DNA of 49,114 nt. Origin: a virus. Taxonomy: Duplodnaviria; Heunggongvirae; Uroviricota; Caudoviricetes. The notes under the pieces were generated by a model. It worked only from the letters and a program-made list of their open reading frames with translations. It was not told the DNA's origin and did not search any database. A program made the translations under genes and the position numbers. Position 1 is the stretch's first letter. Each line of letters opens with the position of its first letter. Of the stretch, positions 22,363 to 37,680 are shown in pieces. The stretch is taken from the IMG/VR virus record IMGVR_UViG_2513237200_000008; one strand, 5' to 3'.

Positions 22363-23176
22363 GTTTGCCCTTCTCCGTTAAAAATTCGTCGGGTAGTTTC
22401 TGAGGGGCGTAGATCGGCAGAGCATCGCAACTGCAATAAACCTCCTCCCCGGCAGCAGTGATTTCGTCATAAAAACCATATACGGGCTTAATAAGCCCCT
22501 GCTCCAGCGCCCACGAATCGCGGAGGAGATAAATTTTCTCGTCGCGCTCTTTGTGGTCCTGTCGGTATTTGTAGCCCGGACGCCGCCAGTTAGAATGCCA
22601 GCGCAGAGCAATCGCACCACTCTGAACAGCCAGCAGATACTTAACGTTGCTCGCCAGCTTATGTCCCTGGTCAATTGCCACCCGGCGACTGATAAAATCC
22701 ATATCCTTCACGGACTTCTGAAAACCGGCCTTCACTTCCCGGCGATCAATTTCGCTCACCCCGTCAGGCGGAATGGACGTAACCCATCCCTGAAAACGCT
22801 GTATGGTTTTCTCGATAGCCTGTTCGCGGTTGAGTTTTATCAGGTTGGCACTGGCGAAAATTCGCCTGTCTAGTTCCTTGCGAAACTCAGGTTTCAGTTT
22901 TTCAACAGTGATTTTTTTAGGGCCGTCAGGAGGCTGATCCCGTAATGCCCCGCCGTCGATGACAAGACGGCTGTAGATAGCGGTGAGGTGTTTTCTGGCT
23001 ACGGTATCATCAGGGGTTTCTCGCTGAGCGGCTACACGGAGTTTCCGGCACCATTCGAGCAATGATTTTTCGCTATCCCACCCGTGATTTACGTAGTAGT
23101 TAACGGCATCCGTCAGAACCTCATATAGCGTCCTGATCCGTTTCTTCTCCCTCACCGCCCGGCTGGAAATTGCCAT
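22343..23176 (-). CDS. Head morphogenesis protein (Mu F-like / SPP1 gp7-like); start placed at the Met with an AGGAGA RBS
   Basis: ORF directly downstream of the portal gene, overlapping its 3' end. Confidence 0.55.
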   Translation of the reverse strand: MAISSRAVREKKRIRTLYEVLTDAVNYYVNHGWDSEKSLLEWCRKLRVAAQRETPDDTVARKHLTAIYSRLVIDGGALRDQPPDGPKKITVEKLKPEFRKELDRRIFASANLIKLNREQAIEKTIQRFQGWVTSIPPDGVSEIDRREVKAGFQKSVKDMDFISRRVAIDQGHKLASNVKYLLAVQSGAIALRWHSNWRRPGYKYRQDHKERDEKIYLLRDSWALEQGLIKPVYGFYDEITAAGEEVYCSCDALPIYAPQKLPDEFLTEKGKREFNRA

Positions 23177-24560
23177 CAGGCGTCTCCTGCTTCGGTGGTT
23201 CATAATTCGCCAGCGCGTCCACATCAATGATGAGTGGAGCTTCGCCATAGGTTTGCGTGGCATTAACAAGGCTTGCCAGCCATTCAGTGACGGCGGCACG
23301 GTTTTCAGGATCAACCTGTGGCGACACGGCAGAGAAAAGTGCTATCGCCTGTTGAATCACTTTACTGTCGCTTTCCCGGCGTTTGTCCGGCGACTCCTCC
23401 ACCAGCTCCTGCCATGTCGCGGTAAATTCACGTCGCCACTGGTAAAACGTGGTTTTATAGTCATCAGTTATGATGTCCGGGTAATCATTTTTCAGCGACT
23501 GATAAAATTCCTCGTTCCAGGCGATGTACTGCACCAGGCGTTCGAAATAATCCATCACGGGTTCAATCTGCTGGCGTACACCATCGATATACTGGCTGAT
23601 GGCTTTCGAATCTTCGGTCCCCTCACCGAAACCATTCGAAAAGGCTTCCTCTTTGATGAGGATCGCCGGAACGTCACTCCCTGACGCAATATCGGAAATA
23701 ATATTGTCGCGTGCAGCGTTTAGCGCACCATCGATGTTTTGTAGATTTAGCGAGGTAACGTCCTCATCCTTCCCGATACTAAGCACACCTTTATTTTTTG
23801 CCTCTTTGACGTATTCCCTTTTTCGTCCCGTGGCGGCAGCCATGATCCCGTCAAGTTTCGAACCGTACTGCACAACTTTAGCTACCAGTACGCCCGCCTT
23901 CTGGCTGACGAGATCATTCGCCTCCATCGTGTTGATATAGGATTTCAGGGAATAAAGAACGCGCTGAAACACACTTCGTCCGGTGAATCCGAACGATGAA
24001 CTCTGAAACTCCAGATAAATCGGTGTGCCGTTGAAGATTTTCAGTGTGCGTGACGGATGCCAGTCTTTCCCACCAATCTTCAGTTTTTTATTGGCTTCCT
24101 GGAAAAACGGGCTGTTGGGGTTCTGGTCAGTCACCATCGAACCGGAAGCGTTCAACGGGTCCCACGCGTTGATATACACGTCATCTTCTGTCAGTCCGAA
24201 CGTCGGAAGCGGTTCACGACATGGAACGCTGTCGGTGCCCACGCCGATCGCTGCAGCACCGTAGCAACGAGACAGAAAAAACAGATTTTTAATCTTCTCG
24301 TTGACCTTCATGCGTTCCCATACCTCCTGAAAACGCCGCACAACCCTCTCGTCAGGGTCTGTCTCCACGTTATACTGGCGCGGCTTACACATCGCCATCA
24401 GTATGGGTTTTTCGACAAGTTTTCCGCCCAGAGGATGGAATTGCCACAGCTGCTTACACAATTCATAGCCAATGTCGGTTCCCGGCTGAATTTCTTCAGC
24501 CTCAAGAATATGCATCAGTGCTGAACCGAGGCCGCCAGTAATCTCGATCTCTGCCATCAA
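23121..24560 (-). CDS. Portal protein
   Basis: 479 aa, immediately downstream of terminase large subunit; acidic C-terminus. Confidence 0.7.
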   Translation of the reverse strand: MMAEIEITGGLGSALMHILEAEEIQPGTDIGYELCKQLWQFHPLGGKLVEKPILMAMCKPRQYNVETDPDERVVRRFQEVWERMKVNEKIKNLFFLSRCYGAAAIGVGTDSVPCREPLPTFGLTEDDVYINAWDPLNASGSMVTDQNPNSPFFQEANKKLKIGGKDWHPSRTLKIFNGTPIYLEFQSSSFGFTGRSVFQRVLYSLKSYINTMEANDLVSQKAGVLVAKVVQYGSKLDGIMAAATGRKREYVKEAKNKGVLSIGKDEDVTSLNLQNIDGALNAARDNIISDIASGSDVPAILIKEEAFSNGFGEGTEDSKAISQYIDGVRQQIEPVMDYFERLVQYIAWNEEFYQSLKNDYPDIITDDYKTTFYQWRREFTATWQELVEESPDKRRESDSKVIQQAIALFSAVSPQVDPENRAAVTEWLASLVNATQTYGEAPLIIDVDALANYEPPKQETPDGNFQPGGEGEETDQDAI

Positions 24561-24575
24561 AAATATCCTGATTTT

Positions 24576-25514
24576 TTACAACGCCGCGTAATTACCGTGC
24601 GCGATAATCAATCCATAGGTATAACAATCGAAAAGGTCATCAGCACGTTTATGCGCGTCTTTGTCTGCCAGGTGGAACCCGGCGATTTGTTTAATGAGGT
24701 GGTTTGCGGTGGTACGTTTGAATGAAACGGTCTTGTCGTAAGCCTCCCGGACGATTTTGCACATCCCCTGATAGTGGTAGCTGGATGCCATCACCGCCCG
24801 TTCGTCTTTACCTTTGCTGGTCAGTGCCGATTTAATCGGCGTCATATCCCAGCCTTCGGTTTCCGCCTTCTGGTTGAGGATTGCCCCCATCGCGGCGTCT
24901 TCCATAAAAATTCCCTGGCTGCCCAGACGCGGACGGCATAATTTCGCGAGGCGCTCGAGGTTGTCATAAACGCCGGGGATATATTCAGGAAGCAATGACG
25001 CTTTAATTTGCGTCACATCCCAGTCAATAATCGTCAGTTTTGGCTCGTCCGAATACGTTGACTCATAAGCGAAATACACCACGCCAGTACCATCATTTTC
25101 GGTCCCGCCTTTCAACGCCGTATCCATCACTGCGAAAATCATGTCGCAGTGCGGCGGCATCTCGACCGGCTGACCGTCCACCAGCAGCTTATCGACATCG
25201 AGTAACGCATCTTTGGACCAGTCCACGAACTCGGCAAGATATTCCTGCTGCCAGACGCGCGGATCGGATTTCTTCTCCGTTTCCTCTAGTTCTTCTTTCG
25301 GAATGTACGGATTCGACGAAGTTGGCGCATGGTGCATGACAAATCCCAGGGATTCATCGTGGCATATCGCGTAGAAAAAAATTGCTCTCGTCGATGCCGT
25401 TTGGTGTGGAAAATACCCACGCACAGCCGCGGTAATCGACAAGCGTCGGGCGTATAGCGCGGGGCCAGATTTCCTCGAGCATTTCCGGCGATTTAGTGAA
25501 TGCGGCCTCATCAA
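24576..25514 (-). CDS. Terminase large subunit, C-terminal (nuclease) portion; frame-shifted relative to the N-terminal part
   Basis: 312-aa ORF overlapping the N-terminal ATPase ORF by about 160 nt; frames join if an A7 run (25375-25381, + strand) is one base shorter. Confidence 0.65.
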   Translation of the reverse strand: MMRPHSLNRRKCSRKSGPALYARRLSITAAVRGYFPHQTASTRAIFFYAICHDESLGFVMHHAPTSSNPYIPKEELEETEKKSDPRVWQQEYLAEFVDWSKDALLDVDKLLVDGQPVEMPPHCDMIFAVMDTALKGGTENDGTGVVYFAYESTYSDEPKLTIIDWDVTQIKASLLPEYIPGVYDNLERLAKLCRPRLGSQGIFMEDAAMGAILNQKAETEGWDMTPIKSALTSKGKDERAVMASSYHYQGMCKIVREAYDKTVSFKRTTANHLIKQIAGFHLADKDAHKRADDLFDCYTYGLIIAHGNYAAL

Positions 25515-25905
25515 TCAGCACAGCGTGATATTTACGCCCACGCCCGGCCAGTTTGTTATTGTCCGTTACCCAAAAGTCGATGCGCCCCCCATTACGGAGA
25601 ATGATGCGCTTTTCATTTTTTGACTGACTGAGGATCAGCGGTTGCAGAACGGCGCTAATTTCATCCCAGATTTCCTGGTACTGGCGGTATTGCGCGGTAA
25701 AAATCCCCACCCTACCCGCGATAAGTTGCCCGGTGGTAGGAACGGCAAATTTCCGCGTAGCGAAACTGGTAGCGATGTTCACCAGCATCACCGTTTTACC
25801 CCAGCGACGACCACAGCATACCGCGTGGAAGCGTTCCTCTATTGCCGCCGTCCATGCAGCTATTTGCCCCTCATGAGGTTTTGGGAGGTAGATTTCAATC
25901 GACAT
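25354..25905 (-). CDS. Terminase large subunit, N-terminal ATPase portion
   Basis: Walker A-like CCGRRWGKT and Walker B-like YHAVLIDEAAF motifs. Confidence 0.7.
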   Translation of the reverse strand: MSIEIYLPKPHEGQIAAWTAAIEERFHAVCCGRRWGKTVMLVNIATSFATRKFAVPTTGQLIAGRVGIFTAQYRQYQEIWDEISAVLQPLILSQSKNEKRIILRNGGRIDFWVTDNNKLAGRGRKYHAVLIDEAAFTKSPEMLEEIWPRAIRPTLVDYRGCAWVFSTPNGIDESNFFLRDMPR

Positions 25906-26986
25906 TATCCACTCCCGGCATCGGCAGAGAGTTGTGGATAATTATTTCGTTATTCTCACCACCCACGCCTTTTTTGAGGTTTTCAATCTCAGTGCGCAGC
26001 TTTTCGTTGCGAAGCCTCAGTCCTTCAAGCTCCAGATCATTGCGACTGTCAGTTGCACCACCAGCAGAACTTCCTTTCGTCGCCATTATCAGCTTGATAA
26101 GTTCGCGCCGGGCGGCAGCCTTATCCTCCAGCAGAATCTCAACACCAAATTTCCCGAGCTTTGCCCCTGCATATAATTGTCGCGCATCCCCATCAAGCAG
26201 AGTGGTATCAGCCATATAAAGCTGTCCCGTTCCCTCACCGCAGCACTTCGGACAATCCGGATTAGGTATGGCGTTATCAACAAAGCCGAGGCCTCCATAT
26301 TCCGGTTCAGGTTTGCCATCTCTGGAAGCCTGTGCCGCTGCGTTGTCGAATTCTGCTATATCGCGCCACTGGTAGAGATGATTCTCGCCCCAGCAATAAC
26401 GACAGTTAACACGGCGAAATTGTGCCAACTGATTGGGGTCGGCCTGGACAATGGCCATCAACTGACTCACCAGTAAATCCAGGTCTGCGGTATAGCGTTT
26501 CTGGTACTGATTGCGGAAGTAGCTGATGGCACGATAAACCTTAGGATTTCTTAGGAGCTGGCTGGCGGTTACGTAGGCCGCATTCCCCTCTGACTCGTAT
26601 CCTGCCAGGCGATATGCCTCAACGAGTTTTTTCCCCTGGGCAACCAGCATTGCGAATTTCGCCTGCTGGTCTGAAATACCGAATTCATCGGGACAGAACG
26701 AAATTTCTTCCGCATCGCCCTCATTCAGGTACGCATCGGATACTGGCTTTTTTTCCTGAGATTTTCCGTTCCGCTTTTGCACAGTCTGCGCAGGTTTTTT
26801 CTGCGCACTTTTTTGCGCAGTTTTGCGCAATTCTGCCTGCGCATTTTTCGGAGGTTTTTTGATATAACGACGGGCTGTTGCGTAATTCAGTTCCCTTGCT
26901 TCACACCATGCCACCGGAGATATACCGGAGCGGGTGTATTCAGCAATATACTCCTGCTGCAACGCCCCCCAGTCCGGTCTGCTCAT
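25895..26986 (-). CDS. Terminase small subunit-like protein
   Basis: 363-aa ORF immediately upstream of terminase large subunit with stop/start overlap. Confidence 0.5.
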   Translation of the reverse strand: MSRPDWGALQQEYIAEYTRSGISPVAWCEARELNYATARRYIKKPPKNAQAELRKTAQKSAQKKPAQTVQKRNGKSQEKKPVSDAYLNEGDAEEISFCPDEFGISDQQAKFAMLVAQGKKLVEAYRLAGYESEGNAAYVTASQLLRNPKVYRAISYFRNQYQKRYTADLDLLVSQLMAIVQADPNQLAQFRRVNCRYCWGENHLYQWRDIAEFDNAAAQASRDGKPEPEYGGLGFVDNAIPNPDCPKCCGEGTGQLYMADTTLLDGDARQLYAGAKLGKFGVEILLEDKAAARRELIKLIMATKGSSAGGATDSRNDLELEGLRLRNEKLRTEIENLKKGVGGENNEIIIHNSLPMPGVDNVD

Positions 26987-26989
26987 CAG

Positions 26990-27241
26990 TTAATCCTGAT
27001 TTTTATCCACCCTGAGTAGTTCGCGCAGGGCAAAGGCATCCCCTTTTCTGGCAAGCTTAAACAATGCCGCCCGTAGCTCGGCTTCACCTTTCGCTCTGCC
27101 CTTACGGATGGACGCATAAAAATTTGTCATTGCTTCCCGATTTTCTTTCAGTCGGTTCAGATCAACATCCAGAACGTCAGCGATTTGTTGTGCAGTCATC
27201 CGGCACGCTGCCAGAGACTCGACTTTCGAATACGGAATCAT
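26990..27241 (-). CDS. Small hypothetical protein (possibly DNA-binding)
   Basis: 83-aa ORF upstream of the terminase small subunit. Confidence 0.3.
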   Translation of the reverse strand: MIPYSKVESLAACRMTAQQIADVLDVDLNRLKENREAMTNFYASIRKGRAKGEAELRAALFKLARKGDAFALRELLRVDKNQD

Positions 27242-28127
27242 TTGTCACCCCCATTGATATGCAGGGTGTCTTCTTCCTGTATTTTTCGTGAAGGATTTTT
27301 ACTGCAGCGTTGTTCCAGGTGACCTGATGGTGAATGCGTTTATGGCTGGCACCCATCAGTGAGATTTTTACACACGACGGCGCATACATGACGGAGTAAA
27401 AACTTTTAACGTAGGTTCCGGAATCCAGATACAGCTCGGTCATTCCGCCGCTGTTTTTCTGCGTCTGTTTCTGCCCTAACTGGACAGCACCGATCGTCAT
27501 AAACAATTCACCACAGCGACCGAGATTCGTGTACGTATTCACATCCTCGTTAATGCGCCCCATGAATGAGAACGGTCGATCAACCGAACAGATAAAGCTG
27601 TTCATTGCCTTGCGTTTCACCCACGAAGCATGGCCGCCATTGTCACCAAGAAAATCCCCGCCCTGCGACATAGCGATGGAAAGCGCAGGTATTGATTCGT
27701 AGTACGCCAGCATTTCAGAAAGGATCGCATCCAGTTTTCTTATCGGGAAATAGGCCTGGTCATAGTTGCGATCCACCCGAAACTGGAACTCGTGATAATC
27801 ATCATCGAGCTGAATGAAGTATTTACACCCGACCAGTTTTACCAGGTCGAAACAGGCATTACGGGCGTAAAAAATTGAGCGGCGATCACCGAAATTATCG
27901 GCTTCGTCAAAACGACTGGCTATATCGGCTTTGGAAAACACCAGCACCTGTTCACCAAATTCAGCTATGTACTGATGCCGTGTCTTATCTTCATCATCAA
28001 CAACGATAAAAACTTTCCCGGTATAGCCAGCACGACGCAACGTCCGGTAAGTCAGAACTTTGTCCGGGCGCCCGTGAGTCAGAATAAAGGCGCAAAAATC
28101 ATCACGCATATTCCTCCTCCCCGCCAT
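27177..28127 (-). CDS. Hypothetical protein with a possible GT-A-like DxD motif, partner of the ParB-like nuclease
   Basis: 316 aa; DDD motif (QLDDDYHEF) about 110 residues in; overlaps the ParB-like gene stop; fold assignment is inferred. Confidence 0.45.
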   Translation of the reverse strand: MAGRRNMRDDFCAFILTHGRPDKVLTYRTLRRAGYTGKVFIVVDDEDKTRHQYIAEFGEQVLVFSKADIASRFDEADNFGDRRSIFYARNACFDLVKLVGCKYFIQLDDDYHEFQFRVDRNYDQAYFPIRKLDAILSEMLAYYESIPALSIAMSQGGDFLGDNGGHASWVKRKAMNSFICSVDRPFSFMGRINEDVNTYTNLGRCGELFMTIGAVQLGQKQTQKNSGGMTELYLDSGTYVKSFYSVMYAPSCVKISLMGASHKRIHHQVTWNNAAVKILHEKYRKKTPCISMGVTNDSVFESRVSGSVPDDCTTNR

Positions 28128-28890
28128 GCATGATCTCCACCATGCGCTGCGTCATCCGGACAAATCCATTTTCAATAGCCTGCTGATAATCAATGATCAC
28201 CAGCGCCGACTCCTCGAAAAGGCACTGAATTTCAGCGGGAGCGTGAGCGTAATAGTCCGCAATTCTGCTGAAATTAAACACCGTATGACGTTCTGCCGCA
28301 CACAGGAGGAATTTCTCAATATCAGGATCAAGGGACGCCGAACGTATCCGGCTGATCAACTCCTGAGTTTTCGTATCGTCGTACAGTTCACTGATATCTG
28401 GTTTATCGCCCGACGGCTCATAAACAGGCGTATCAATTTTCGTCGTGTACGGCTCCTCCTCATTTCCTGTACCTGGCAAAACATCCGTCAACAATTCATC
28501 AATTTCTGTTGGGCTGAATCCTGTCAGGGAGACATCAAAATCAGCATTGATTAGGTCCGACAGCTCCATCCGTAACAGATCTTCATCCCAGCCAGCATTC
28601 ATCGGCAGGCGATTATCTGCCAGGCGGTACGCCTTTTTTTGGTCATCCGTCAGACCAGACAGAACAATGACCGGAACCGAATCCATTTTGAGCACTTCAG
28701 CCGCCATAACACGACCGTGACCCGCAATAATTTCGCCCTTTTCATCAATCAGCACTGGATTAGTCCAGCCGAATTGCTTAATGCTTTCTACCAGTTGTGC
28801 CACCTGCTCAGGGCTGTGTGTCCTGGCATTGTGTGCATACGGAGATAGTTCTTGTAACGGGCGATAGACGATCTTCAATTTCTCGCTCAT
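28102..28890 (-). CDS. ParB-like nuclease domain protein
   Basis: 262 aa; N-terminal region (YRPLQELSPYAHNARTHSPEQVAQLVESIKQFGWTNPVLI ... GHGRVMAA) typical of ParB/Srx N-terminal domains. Confidence 0.65.
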   Translation of the reverse strand: MSEKLKIVYRPLQELSPYAHNARTHSPEQVAQLVESIKQFGWTNPVLIDEKGEIIAGHGRVMAAEVLKMDSVPVIVLSGLTDDQKKAYRLADNRLPMNAGWDEDLLRMELSDLINADFDVSLTGFSPTEIDELLTDVLPGTGNEEEPYTTKIDTPVYEPSGDKPDISELYDDTKTQELISRIRSASLDPDIEKFLLCAAERHTVFNFSRIADYYAHAPAEIQCLFEESALVIIDYQQAIENGFVRMTQRMVEIMHGGEEEYA

Positions 28891-29013
28891 ACAGCCTCGC
28901 TTTATGAATAAAAAAGCCCGCTATCGGCCAGTGCGCTGGGTGCGCGGCGGGTGCTGATAACGAGCTTTGACATTATCGCAGCCCCTCACACTGAAGGGCT
29001 GCTGTAATGCCTG

Positions 29014-31281: not shown

Positions 31282-31356
<75 letters not shown>

Positions 31357-31359
31357 ATA

Positions 31360-31435
<76 letters not shown>

Positions 31436-34476: not shown

Positions 34477-35454
34477 TCATAAAGTTAAATGCGGCCCTAA
34501 ATACGCCACATATATCCGCTGATTTACTGCGTCAGCATAAAAATGTAGGCGGTAACCGTCAGGTAGTTTTACATGATTCTCGCAATAGACCTGCCGTCCA
34601 TCATCTAACCAAAATATGCGCTCTTTCTTCTTTTTGGAGGCATTATTTACACTGTCCGATTCACCGCTAACTTCAGCAGCCAAACCCAAATCTCTTAAAT
34701 ATTCATGACGGTACTCTACATACTCACCTGAACGCCATTTCTCACTAAACGATTCCAACACATTTAGCGCATCTCGTGCCTTGAACAAGACATTTTGCCT
34801 AGCAGACCAACCTTGTAGACTTGTACCTATTTGATTTGACAACAAAGTGAGATGAGGAAACAAATCTGCTCTTTTCAGCCAGATATCCTTAGCAGTACTT
34901 AACAACGTATTACGATGTTGTTTGAGTTCATCTCCATGCACATCCAAGCTCGCAGAATTACTCAGATTTAAAATCGTTTCATCCCTTTGTTCTGGTATTG
35001 CATCAAGCTCGAAAACCCATACTTTAAAATGGCTATTTGTCCAAGTAGCTAAAGCCGTAAAACTAGCAAGAAAAGTTTTAAAATAAAACGCTGCTAATAG
35101 CACCGCTTTACCTGTATCTTCCCCTGGCAAGCCAACTTCTAATACATCACCTAAAGTTTCAATATCCACGGTTTCAAAGAGAGGCTGTTTCGTTTCAAGA
35201 GACTTTAGAAATCGACACCAATCCGCAAGTTCTGCAACTTTGCTCGCAGAGGCAAGCCAATTGCGCACAAAATATCCGTTAGCCAGCTCCAATCCCATTA
35301 GCGACTTGTCTTGATCTTCATCGATGAGCAAAATTTTCAGCCCAGCAGTTCGGCAGACCTTAAGAACAGTAAAGAAAGCCAATAGTCCTTCATCTGCATC
35401 CTCTTTGCTAGCAAATGGCAAAGAATGATGGTTCAACACAATTCCATTACTCAT
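34477..35454 (-). CDS. Third gene of candidate defense operon: 325-aa protein with no motif I recognise
   Basis: ATGA start/stop overlap with the upstream ATPase gene; AT-rich. Confidence 0.6.
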   Translation of the reverse strand: MSNGIVLNHHSLPFASKEDADEGLLAFFTVLKVCRTAGLKILLIDEDQDKSLMGLELANGYFVRNWLASASKVAELADWCRFLKSLETKQPLFETVDIETLGDVLEVGLPGEDTGKAVLLAAFYFKTFLASFTALATWTNSHFKVWVFELDAIPEQRDETILNLSNSASLDVHGDELKQHRNTLLSTAKDIWLKRADLFPHLTLLSNQIGTSLQGWSARQNVLFKARDALNVLESFSEKWRSGEYVEYRHEYLRDLGLAAEVSGESDSVNNASKKKKERIFWLDDGRQVYCENHVKLPDGYRLHFYADAVNQRIYVAYLGPHLTL

Positions 35455-36560
35455 AACAGATGATCCAACTCCTTATCCCATTGGTCAAAGAAGCCTTCCG
35501 GCCAACAGTCTATTCGTCCCTCATCATCAATATTGGGGTACATGACTTCTGAGGCGTGAATGGAGTTATGAACATCTCGCTGTAAGAAAAAGACTTTGAC
35601 ATCGTCAGCTGCAACCACTTTCTGCTTCACCGCAACCCGTATACCGTTGAGAAAATGATCAGAATGAGATTCAACGATTAATTGCACGCCATTATTCGCA
35701 GCAATGGAGCACAATTTACCCATCAAGGATTGCCCAGCGGGATGCAAGTGTGATTCTGGGTTTTCAATAATCAGCAAATCACCTTTTGCCGCACTTAGTA
35801 TACTGGTTACGACAGGTAACACATAACTTAATCCAAACCCCACATTCTGTGGTTTAAAGTCTTCGGTGGTGTCTTTCCCTTGGTTAAAAGAGTAACTAAG
35901 ACTCACCGAATTAAACTGAGGCTGCGCTACTGCTTTAATTTTTAACCCTGGCGTAATATCCGACATCCATGCTTCAATATTAGAAAGCAAAGTCCCTGAA
36001 ACAGCCTTTTGATGGCGTAACGCTTCTATTTCCAGGTCTTTAGCGCCATTAACCGCGATAAAATGAACTGCAAATTCGCCATGATGACCAAGTGATTTTA
36101 AATCACGGATATGAAACTCAGACAACTGGTGATGGCTTTGTGGGCCTAACCTATCGGCACATAAATACTGAAAATTAGAGTTAAATAAGCTTAATAATTC
36201 TGAATCACCGTCAATACCAGATTTACGCAGCGGCAGCAGATCTGAGTCATGTTGATAATCAAACTCAAACCGTGTTGGCTGTTCTTTCTCGAGCCATTTA
36301 ATGGTAAAAATAATCTCTTCTTGTTCACTAAAACTAGAGAGCGCGTCTTTACCCGTACCGATATTGACATAATCACCATTTAACAGCAAACCCTTAGTTT
36401 TAAGGGTATTGCGTTCATAAGACTGCCTTAAAAGCAATAAACTTTGCACAAGCGTTGATTTTCCCATGCCATTAAGGCCTGAGAACAGATTCAGATTACC
36501 CAGTGGAAAACTGGCATTTAACAAGGTTTTAAAGTTTTGAATATTAATAAACTCAATCAT
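35451..36560 (-). CDS. ABC-type AAA ATPase (AAA_15/AAA_21-like with DUF3696-like C-terminus)
   Basis: Walker A GLNGMGKST near the N-terminus; LLIIENPESHLHP; C-terminal ESHSDHFLNGIRVAV; 8-nt overlap with the upstream gene. Confidence 0.7.
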   Translation of the reverse strand: MIEFINIQNFKTLLNASFPLGNLNLFSGLNGMGKSTLVQSLLLLRQSYERNTLKTKGLLLNGDYVNIGTGKDALSSFSEQEEIIFTIKWLEKEQPTRFEFDYQHDSDLLPLRKSGIDGDSELLSLFNSNFQYLCADRLGPQSHHQLSEFHIRDLKSLGHHGEFAVHFIAVNGAKDLEIEALRHQKAVSGTLLSNIEAWMSDITPGLKIKAVAQPQFNSVSLSYSFNQGKDTTEDFKPQNVGFGLSYVLPVVTSILSAAKGDLLIIENPESHLHPAGQSLMGKLCSIAANNGVQLIVESHSDHFLNGIRVAVKQKVVAADDVKVFFLQRDVHNSIHASEVMYPNIDDEGRIDCWPEGFFDQWDKELDHLL

Positions 36561-37680
36561 TAAGCATCTCTTTAATCAAAGCATTGACTTTTTCATACCG
36601 TATTTCCACATGCTCTTTTCGCTGAGTGGAGTAGCTAATAACATTAATAAATTCAGCATCTTCCAATAACGTCTGCACCTTTTTTTGAAACTTTTTTTGA
36701 TTATAAACCAAGCGGTTAAACTCGTTTTCAGTTAATTTCACCAACATAACCATCCAGACTTCAAATAGTGTTGCATTTTTTGACCGTCTTCTTGATGCAG
36801 GGTTTTTTTCAAAACCCTTTTCTCCTAACAGTTGGTAACAGCGCTCTATTGCAGTTGAATACTTAGCTTTAAACTCTGCACGGTAGGCATCATCACCTTT
36901 TTTGATATCTTCCATGGCTTTATCTAAAAACGAAGAGATTTCTTTTTTGTTTTTAGGGTCTAAATAATCAAAGCGATAGAACGCCCAGAATCGCAATACC
37001 AGTTCCTGATCCTTCATACGTTTGGAAAGGTCACCTAGCATGGCTTTCGAGCATGCTGAATTGGCTAACTCTTCGAGCAATTCTCTGTCTCTTGGCTTAG
37101 CGAGCGCATTACGGATCTCTTGATTATTTAGAGTTAAGCCACCTGTATTGATCCGGCGAAACACCGAATACTTAACGTCCTCAGGCGTACCCGGCTTAAT
37201 CATGTACACAGTAACAGGACATTCTTCAATACGGCGTTGATATTGACGATGTAATTTATCGAAGGTTTTACCATTAAGGTCTGTTAAGAACTCCAGTCCA
37301 TTGAGACGAAGCTTTTTATCTAACACAAACTTGCGAATCGTAGATAACCGCTGCAAGCCATCCACAATTAGCCAATTATTTTCATCGGACGCATCGAAGT
37401 AGAAAGCAGGTAATGGGAACCGAATCAAAATTGATTCGATTAATCGGCTCATCTTGCGGTTATCCCATAACTCCGCATGGCGCTGAAAATCGGTATTCAT
37501 GTCGATCTCATTGTGCTGAATTCGCTTAATCAAGGCATCCAACGACTTCGGTTCAACGACGATATCAATATCAGTCGGGTTGAACGGGTGCATCACCTCA
37601 TCAAGCAGTTCCGGCTCTTCCTCTTCCGCACCTGGCGCAACCAACTCTTCATCAAGCTCGGTTTCTTGATAATCAACCAT
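36553..37680 (-). CDS. DUF262-like (ParB/GmrSD N-terminal-like) domain protein, first gene of candidate defense operon
   Basis: DGxQR-type motif in LIVDGLQRLSTI; acidic N-terminus; AT-rich. Confidence 0.65.
   Translation of the reverse strand: MVDYQETELDEELVAPGAEEEEPELLDEVMHPFNPTDIDIVVEPKSLDALIKRIQHNEIDMNTDFQRHAELWDNRKMSRLIESILIRFPLPAFYFDASDENNWLIVDGLQRLSTIRKFVLDKKLRLNGLEFLTDLNGKTFDKLHRQYQRRIEECPVTVYMIKPGTPEDVKYSVFRRINTGGLTLNNQEIRNALAKPRDRELLEELANSACSKAMLGDLSKRMKDQELVLRFWAFYRFDYLDPKNKKEISSFLDKAMEDIKKGDDAYRAEFKAKYSTAIERCYQLLGEKGFEKNPASRRRSKNATLFEVWMVMLVKLTENEFNRLVYNQKKFQKKVQTLLEDAEFINVISYSTQRKEHVEIRYEKVNALIKEMLND

Follow-up and report, generated by a model that had tools for sequence, protein, structure and literature searches.

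What does a phage glycosyltransferase modify when it is encoded next to a ParB-like protein, just upstream of the terminase genes? The question is raised by two adjoining genes in a 49,114-nt stretch of DNA (IMG/VR virus record IMGVR_UViG_2513237200_000008, Caudoviricetes; hereafter, the window), which is a lambdoid, Rac-like prophage. One gene encodes a ParB-like protein (28102..28890; 262 aa from an ATG), and the other encodes a GT-A glycosyltransferase (27177..28109; 310 aa from its likely start) of the TET-associated glycosyltransferase (TAGT) family. These and all other window features described below lie on the minus strand. The explanation that we favour, with a probability of roughly 0.5, is that the pair is a late-expressed DNA glycosylation cassette in which the ParB-like protein activates the enzyme.

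A TAGT-family enzyme with an obligate partner

The glycosyltransferase matches PF20691, the Pfam model of the TAGT family, over profile positions 4-205 of 205 (E=3.9e-34, 118.8 bits versus a cutoff of 27.5), as well as the phage family phrog_842, named 'beta-glucosyl-HMC-alpha-glucosyltransferase' (E=8e-103). It has the GT-A (nucleotide-diphospho-sugar transferase) fold, and its structural neighbours include the GT-A enzymes POMGnT1, glycogenin, SunS and GalNAc-T. Alignment of 22 diverse homologues (59-82% identity) revealed that R20, the DxD-type motif D108-D109-D110 (27798..27806) and E194-D195 (in NEDVNTY) are invariant, residues being numbered on the longest, 316-aa open reading frame (ORF). 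These residues match the R...DDD...EDY/F motif reported for phage GT-A enzymes that modify DNA and for JGT (bioRxiv 10.1101/2023.12.21.572611), the kinetoplastid base-J glucosyltransferase, which is a structural relative of TAGT enzymes. An earlier note, made from the sequence alone, had guessed a GT-A fold for the 316-aa protein from its DDD motif; the motif is real, and the full-profile match, the fold and the invariant residues bear the guess out. Sugar transfer is the activity predicted from this family, fold and set of catalytic motifs. The protein is mildly basic (pI 8.0). No solved structure for it is detectable by sequence search, and neither PADLOC nor NCBIfam holds a model that matches it.

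The pairing of this enzyme with the C-terminal domain of its neighbour (hereafter, the C-domain; residues 171-262, 28105..28380) is obligate across distant viruses. Sampling of IMG/VR and of a single genome for each species yielded 142 TAGT loci. A C-domain gene lies immediately upstream on the same strand in 136 of them; the remaining six have no C-domain ORF, and some of these contigs end at or near the TAGT gene. When the partner was used as the starting point, a TAGT enzyme was found downstream of the C-domain in 80 of 80 loci (tblastn included). The enzyme-side loci reside in prophages of Enterobacteriaceae, Bacteroides, Veillonella, Clostridia, Desulfovibrionaceae, Prosthecochloris, Spirochaetes, Kiritimatiellae, Alphaproteobacteria and Saccharibacteria, and in contigs binned with archaea. 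The pair is also present in isolated viruses, namely the Lactobacillus delbrueckii phages c5, LL-Ku, phiLdb and Ld17, the L. gasseri phage phi jlb1, Nocardia phage NTR1, Porphyromonas phages and the haloarchaeal virus HHTV-2 (genes 21 and 22). Both genes have thousands of database homologues (at least 7752 and at least 7940) and are therefore conserved genes rather than chance ORFs.

From the archaeal halovirus to E. coli, the enzyme retains ~40-60% identity. Identity between this subfamily and the TAGTs of T4-like Aeromonas phages is only ~23-25%; other TAGTs are far less conserved among themselves and lack the partner. The 195-kb Vibrio phages carry a partner reduced to a stand-alone 139-aa C-domain (E=5e-37) without a ParB domain. 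This reduced form identifies the C-domain and the enzyme as the core of the system, to which the ParB domain is a frequent but replaceable addition at the N-terminus. Divergence among 71 non-redundant pairs agrees with this division. The enzyme averages 51% pairwise identity, compared with 47% for the C-domain and 33% for the ParB domain. Taken as descriptive values only, since pairs are not independent, the divergence correlations are 0.42 (rho) for the enzyme versus the C-domain, and only 0.14 and 0.17 for these two versus the ParB domain, although the C-domain and the ParB domain share a polypeptide.

Domains of the partner, gene order and deletion derivatives

Residues 1-100 of the partner (28591..28890) form a predicted nucleotide-binding domain of the ParB-CTPase/Srx fold, as identified by alignments and Foldseek. 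The match to PF02195 (ParB_N) is marginal (28.4 bits versus a cutoff of 26.3) and that to phrog_620, from the phage library, is strong (E=4.5e-90). Foldseek matches comprise Noc, PadC, ParB, KorB, sulfiredoxin and SerK, with E-values from 1e-5 to 1e-2. The ParB/Srx-like N-terminal domain that the earlier note saw in this 262-aa protein is supported by these results, and RefSeq names the product 'ParB/Srx family N-terminal domain-containing protein'; the gene is called ynaK in some genomes. N21, H25, S36, G41, G57-x-G59-R60 and D92-N93 are invariant, and R23 is also conserved. Box II reads GHGR where canonical ParB has GERR, the glutamate being replaced by His58. No helix-turn-helix (HTH) DNA-binding domain was found after the ParB domain in Pfam searches or AlphaFold2 (AF2) models, and scans of Pfam, PHROGs, NCBIfam and PADLOC gave no sign of a nuclease motif or domain.

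The domain is followed by an acidic helical connector (residues 101-135, 28486..28590; GWD...LTGFS..EIDELL), in which W101, D102, G124 and F125 are conserved and AF2 places helices at 103-115, 120-123 and 127-134. Residues 136-170 (28381..28485) are predicted to be disordered, with predicted local distance difference test (pLDDT) values below 50, and contain the linear motif Y148-T-x-K-I-x-T-P155-x-Y157-E-P (28414-28449). Y148, P155, Y157 and P164 are invariant in 31 representatives that are ~45-56% identical to the window copy. The C-domain is mostly helical and belongs to no named family. It features the conserved pattern FL..AA.RHTVF..IA.YYAHA...Q.L.E.SALVIID..AI..GF, with many invariant positions; profile searches of Pfam and PDB turned up no credible relative (the top PDB match, to an adhesin coiled coil, had E=0.03, and the top Pfam match had E=0.007). 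The domain has 1196 cluster representatives at 50% identity, nearly all of them C-terminal in ~260-aa proteins, and no fusion to a glycosyltransferase was seen among the best 150 of these. The AF2 layout of the whole protein consists of a nucleotide-binding domain (1-95), helices (103-134), a linker (136-170) and a helical C-terminal region (172-254).

The N-terminal domain also matches the N-termini of phage methyltransferases (phrog_498, E=3e-51; PADLOC MTase_II, PDLC03229, E=1e-38), and domains of this type occur in 434 phage records, many of which are annotated as DNA modification methylase. The ParB_N-DNA methyltransferase fusions, which many temperate phages carry under this annotation, resemble the partner in having both the ParB N-domain and the acidic connector. 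They differ in their effector, which is a fused N6/N4 methyltransferase; here, the effector is a separate glycosyltransferase, apparently recruited through the distinct C-terminal domain of the partner. Phage fusions to methyltransferases and DUFs, and binding of ATP, CTP or GTP, are described in a survey of the ParB-CTPase fold, in the available text of which the word glycosyltransferase occurs 0 times. One unusual partner is encoded in an Ignavibacteriae metagenome-assembled genome contig (L103 189..1736), directly upstream of the TAGT gene. This 516-aa protein consists of a weakly matching N-terminus similar to S-adenosylmethionine (SAM) methyltransferases (PF13489, E=5e-4), ParB_N and the C-domain, in that order, and may combine two modification activities.

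The longest glycosyltransferase ORF spans 27177..28127 (316 aa, ATG) and overlaps the 262-aa ORF by 26 nt. Nearly all homologues start at MRDDFC, which is M7 of that ORF, and the RefSeq form, named 'GREB1-related protein', has 310 aa; the likely start is therefore the ATG at 28109, from which the overlap is 8 nt, ATGCGTGA. At the junction (28102..28120), GGAGGAGGA, read directly from the sequence at 28112-28120, precedes this ATG (28107-28109), and the upstream gene stops with TGA at 28102-28104. Together, the overlap and the preceding GGAGGAGGA suggest that the partner and glycosyltransferase genes are translationally coupled. Both the overlap of the two ORFs and the position of the pair upstream of the terminase genes had been pointed out before, and both stand. 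Directly downstream are an 83-aa ORF (26990..27241), terS (25895..26986) and terL (24576..25905; frameshifted in the window), all three of which are context outside the cassette, and then, downstream of terL, the portal gene (23121..24560). Holin genes and an M15 endolysin gene lie upstream (~29.5 to 30.6 kb). A search for sigma-70-like promoters between the lysis genes and the pair gave none, which fits transcription of the pair with the late (lysis and packaging) genes.

This order is widespread. In diverse loci, genes for the small and large terminase subunits and the portal usually lie just downstream of the pair, and the terminases come from several unrelated families (Terminase_6N, Terminase_3, GpA and T7-type). 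In Lactobacillus phage c5, the pair corresponds to ORF1 and ORF2, directly after the cos site. In the 195-kb Vibrio phages, the cassette is found among primase, exonuclease and helicase genes, away from the terminase. Within E. coli, stretch 27000-29000 is 100% identical to strain W and its derivative LY180, and at least 80% of it is found in 865 of 5426 complete genomes (~1/6).

Derivatives with deletions were also identified. Lactobacillus phage Ld25A (KJ564036.1 366..500) carries a 'putative ParB nuclease' gene in which only the last ~45 residues of TAGT similarity remain. This remnant points to an internal deletion that fused both genes in a viable phage, and the cassette thus appears dispensable. 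In the Rac prophage of K-12 MG1655 (L226 4378..4981, ynaK and ydaY), ynaK is the first 86 codons of the ParB-like gene (95% identical), the rest of which is deleted along with the whole glycosyltransferase gene; ydaY is unrelated to either. As a result, K-12 lacks the cassette, and E. coli W has it. Many 'fusion' proteins in databases, in which TAGT or ParB sequences are joined to tail-fibre, Lom or NlpC domains, look like deletion scars. The dispensability seen in Ld25A and K-12 Rac fits an accessory anti-defence role.

Candidate acceptors of the sugar

According to the explanation that we favour, the pair would be a self-contained, virus-borne cassette of two genes, the TAGT-family enzyme and its dedicated ParB-like partner, which would glycosylate the phage's own DNA after replication and before or during packaging. 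The sugar would be taken from a nucleotide-activated donor of the host. Binding to the enzyme would fall to the C-domain of the partner, perhaps with help from the Y-T-x-K-I-x-T-P-x-Y-E-P motif; the ParB nucleotide-binding domain would serve as a nucleotide-regulated switch or adaptor that enables the enzyme to act on duplex DNA. Phage DNA would thereby be shielded from host nucleases or from restriction in the next host.

A link to DNA is provided by the kinship of the ParB N-domain with the N-termini of DNA methyltransferases, taken together with the terminase or replication-gene context. The 40-60% identity maintained between halovirus and E. coli enzymes fits universal substrates, such as DNA and nucleoside diphosphate sugars, better than host-specific proteins. 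Moreover, certain phage thymine dioxygenases depend on a cognate ParB-like protein for their activation on double-stranded DNA (O'Toole et al., PNAS 2026; PMC13229309). In these activators, a nucleotide-binding domain is joined through a short helical segment and ~50 aa of unstructured linker to a C-terminal domain, and a DNA-binding domain is lacking; each is paired specifically with its cognate dioxygenase, and the clusters are often near terminase genes (PMC13229309). They offer a precedent for the partner as an activator, and the AF2 layout of the partner matches their organization. As in the 5mYOX176/ParB176 pair, the ParB-like gene adjoins the gene of a modifying enzyme and its product has no DNA-binding domain; N21, R23, S36 and R60 are spaced similarly to the published N14, R16, S29 and R56. 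The enzyme here is, in contrast, a glycosyltransferase rather than an iron/2-oxoglutarate dioxygenase, and no dioxygenase was found. For the present pair, we infer DNA to be the acceptor, the partner to be an activator of the enzyme and the modification to serve against restriction. The earlier note had suggested that a nuclease plus transferase pair could be a DNA-modification or anti-restriction module, a reading that is supported in part.

In T2/T6, TAGT enzymes attach a second glucose to glucosyl-hydroxymethylcytosine (PMC13390438; PMC13216743), and TET-associated glycosyltransferases glycosylate 5-hydroxymethylcytosine (bioRxiv 10.1101/2023.12.21.572611). Like these enzymes, including the phage GT-A enzymes associated with TET/5mYOX, the present one is phage-encoded and has the PF20691 domain, the fold and the R...DDD...ED motifs. 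A Nucleic Acids Research paper of 2026 recorded a 'solitary TAGT' of undefined function in 288 of 753 phage genomes (PMC13216743), and a 2023 preprint noticed ParB-like genes near such glycosyltransferases, without explanation (bioRxiv 10.1101/2023.12.21.572611).

Several points weigh against DNA as the acceptor and the partner as an activator. Known TAGTs act on 5-hydroxymethylcytosine, 5-hydroxymethyluracil or glucosyl-hydroxymethylcytosine supplied by a co-encoded hydroxymethylase or dioxygenase. Here, no TET/JBP enzyme, 5mYOX, dCMP/dUMP (thymidylate-synthase-like) hydroxymethylase, C5-methylase or alpha- or beta-glucosyltransferase was found among 132 neighbours at ~30 diverse loci, and none of these enzymes was found in the scanned large ORFs of the window prophage. 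Glycosylation of DNA would thus call for a hitherto undescribed acceptor. With a pI of 4.5 and a net charge of about -25, the partner is strongly acidic; it has no recognizable DNA-binding domain, and the C-terminal halves of the AF2 models of both proteins are of low confidence. Finally, GREB1, although it contains a TAGT domain, is reported to O-GlcNAcylate a protein, ER-alpha (PMC7968844). GREB1 is a large eukaryotic protein, and the RefSeq name that it shares with the phage enzyme reflects the common domain only. If DNA is the acceptor, it is possible, and we propose it only tentatively, that a canonical base, host-methylated DNA or some other position in the DNA receives the sugar directly, with no need for a hydroxymethylated base.

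Variants with a third gene indicate that the pair behaves as a small biosynthetic cassette. About 10 related loci hold such a gene between the partner and TAGT genes. In most, it encodes a ~320-aa fusion of a histidine phosphatase (PF00300, E~1e-36) and a cytidylyltransferase-like domain (PF01467, E~1e-14). The fusion is found in the IMG/VR contigs L146 (1419..2384), L152, L153, L155, L156, L157, L166 and L173. Its cytidylyl/adenylyl-transferase part is related to TagD and RfaE domain II, with scores below their cutoffs. Judging from these domains, the phosphatase-nucleotidyltransferase probably makes an activated sugar donor, which in these relatives would be supplied by the phage. At one further locus (L147 936..1901, IMG/VR contig 3300010347_000738), the third gene encodes a 322-aa radical SAM enzyme (PF04055, E=8e-15), with weak MoaA-like and viperin-like matches. 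The inserted enzymes look like donor makers or substrate preparers.

An alternative that we regard as unlikely is that the cassette glycosylates a protein, either its own partner (at Tyr148/Tyr157 or Thr149) or a virion, terminase or host protein. The GREB1 report provides a precedent, and the obligate partner contains its invariant Tyr/Pro-rich motif within a stretch predicted to be disordered. A protein acceptor would also agree with the lack of a hydroxymethyl-base pathway in the window or the neighbours scanned, and with the probable late expression next to structural genes. The structural neighbours named above glycosylate proteins or peptides, but the fold neighbours of a GT-A enzyme say nothing about the type of acceptor. 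Set against a protein acceptor are the ParB N-domain, which is common to DNA methyltransferases, and the Vibrio phage loci, where the surrounding genes serve DNA replication. Furthermore, terminases and virion proteins vary widely, while the enzyme stays 40-60% identical, and only modification of the cassette's own proteins would fit this conservation.

Glycosylation of a small molecule or nucleotide, whereby a defence signal would be inactivated or a host sugar nucleotide diverted, with the ParB-like protein as a nucleotide-binding regulatory subunit, is distinctly less credible. ParB-fold domains do bind ATP, CTP or GTP, and small-molecule kinases such as SerK are among them, as is Srx. The phosphatase-nucleotidyltransferase or radical SAM enzymes of some cassettes are typical of small-molecule pathways, but they are equally explained as makers of a sugar donor. 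The lack of an enzyme that would prepare DNA as an acceptor is also in keeping with this alternative. Nevertheless, all characterised microbial TAGT members act on DNA, the place beside terminase or replication genes is conserved, and DNA methyltransferases have related N-domains.

The conserved position directly upstream of terS/terL, along with the historical annotation 'ParB-like nuclease', might instead indicate a packaging accessory, that is, a ParB-like nuclease or a pac/cos-binding factor that aids the terminase (cf. HNH in HK97-like phages), with the glycosyltransferase as a passenger. We consider this highly improbable. The conserved element of the partner is the C-domain rather than the ParB domain, tight and exclusive coupling to an enzyme would be unexpected for a passenger gene, and the partner has no detected nuclease motif or domain. 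A packaging nuclease was rejected in view of the Vibrio version, in which the C-domain occurs alone and away from the terminase, the association of the cassette with at least four unrelated terminase families, and the viable deletion derivatives, including Ld25A. A plasmid-type partition protein, as suggested by the ParB_N match and by GenBank annotations such as 'chromosome (plasmid) partitioning protein', is scarcely conceivable and was rejected as contradicted, given a TIGR00180 score below that of canonical partition ParB (36.9 bits versus a cutoff of 58.45), no HTH, no ParA in Pfam scans of most window ORFs of at least 90 aa, an integrated prophage and no match to the enzyme among 72,556 plasmids (PLSDB).

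Neighbouring genes and implications

Other genes of the prophage feature peculiarities of their own. The 83-aa ORF (26990..27241; 69 aa in RefSeq) matches the middle of the terS family phrog_309 (E=2.5e-22) and overlaps an enterobacteria-specific C-terminal extension (the last ~25 residues) of the glycosyltransferase. The enterobacterial relatives L064 and L075 have a comparable small ORF, which is not found in other phyla. An additional T in a T-run near 25381 breaks the terL gene into ORFs of 183 aa and 312 aa, relative to the intact 443-codon copy of E. coli HBUT-L (L001 3578..4906). Barring a sequencing error or a programmed frameshift, the window prophage may be unable to package DNA. The portal gene (L001 2123..3559 in HBUT-L) is named 'anti-CBASS protein Acb1 family protein' in RefSeq, but matches Phage_portal_3 in Pfam (E=1e-12) and phrog_146 in PHROGs (E=3e-74); the Acb1 name is probably a naming artefact.

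Genes for tRNA-Gly(TCC) and tRNA-Thr(TGT) map to 31282..31435, between the antiterminator region and the lysis genes. Further upstream, three genes (34477..37680) match the NsnABC anti-phage system of PADLOC, namely NsnA (DUF262/GmrSD_N, E=3.5e-123), NsnB (AAA_15/AAA_21 and DUF3696, E=9e-122) and NsnC (E=1e-89). Canonical GmrSD enzymes cleave glucosylated DNA. NsnA, which carries the GmrSD N-terminal domain, notably shares a prophage with a putative DNA glycosyltransferase.

The components of the cassette are of known kinds, as both the TAGT family and the ParB-CTPase fold are established and ParB-assisted DNA modification has already been described for dioxygenases. In the literature searched, the founding 2013 TAGT paper excepted, neither the near-universal place before the terminase nor the independence from the hydroxymethylpyrimidine pathway is described. 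The same applies to the exclusive pairing of the TAGT subfamily with the C-domain, although the 2013 paper may mention a ParB linkage.

To our knowledge, every known case of phage DNA glycosylation is a second step that follows the placement of a hydroxymethyl group on cytosine or uracil. Here, a conserved TAGT occurs without the hydroxymethylation step, tied to a ParB-like partner and beside packaging genes, in temperate phages that span E. coli, Bacteroides, Veillonella, Lactobacillus, Nocardia and a haloarchaeal virus. Whether this is the first system to glycosylate DNA independently of a hydroxymethylated base, with a two-subunit TAGT and ParB-like activator working around packaging, is doubtful at present. 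Should DNA prove to be the acceptor, the cassette would represent new chemistry for DNA modification and an unrecognised anti-restriction layer in very common prophages, including that of E. coli W, a strain used in laboratories and industry, with consequences for sequencing, cloning and phage therapy. The activation of DNA-modifying enzymes by ParB-fold proteins, a finding of 2026, would then extend from dioxygenases to glycosyltransferases, and a role would be found for an unnamed domain family of ~1200 clusters and for many 'solitary TAGT' genes.

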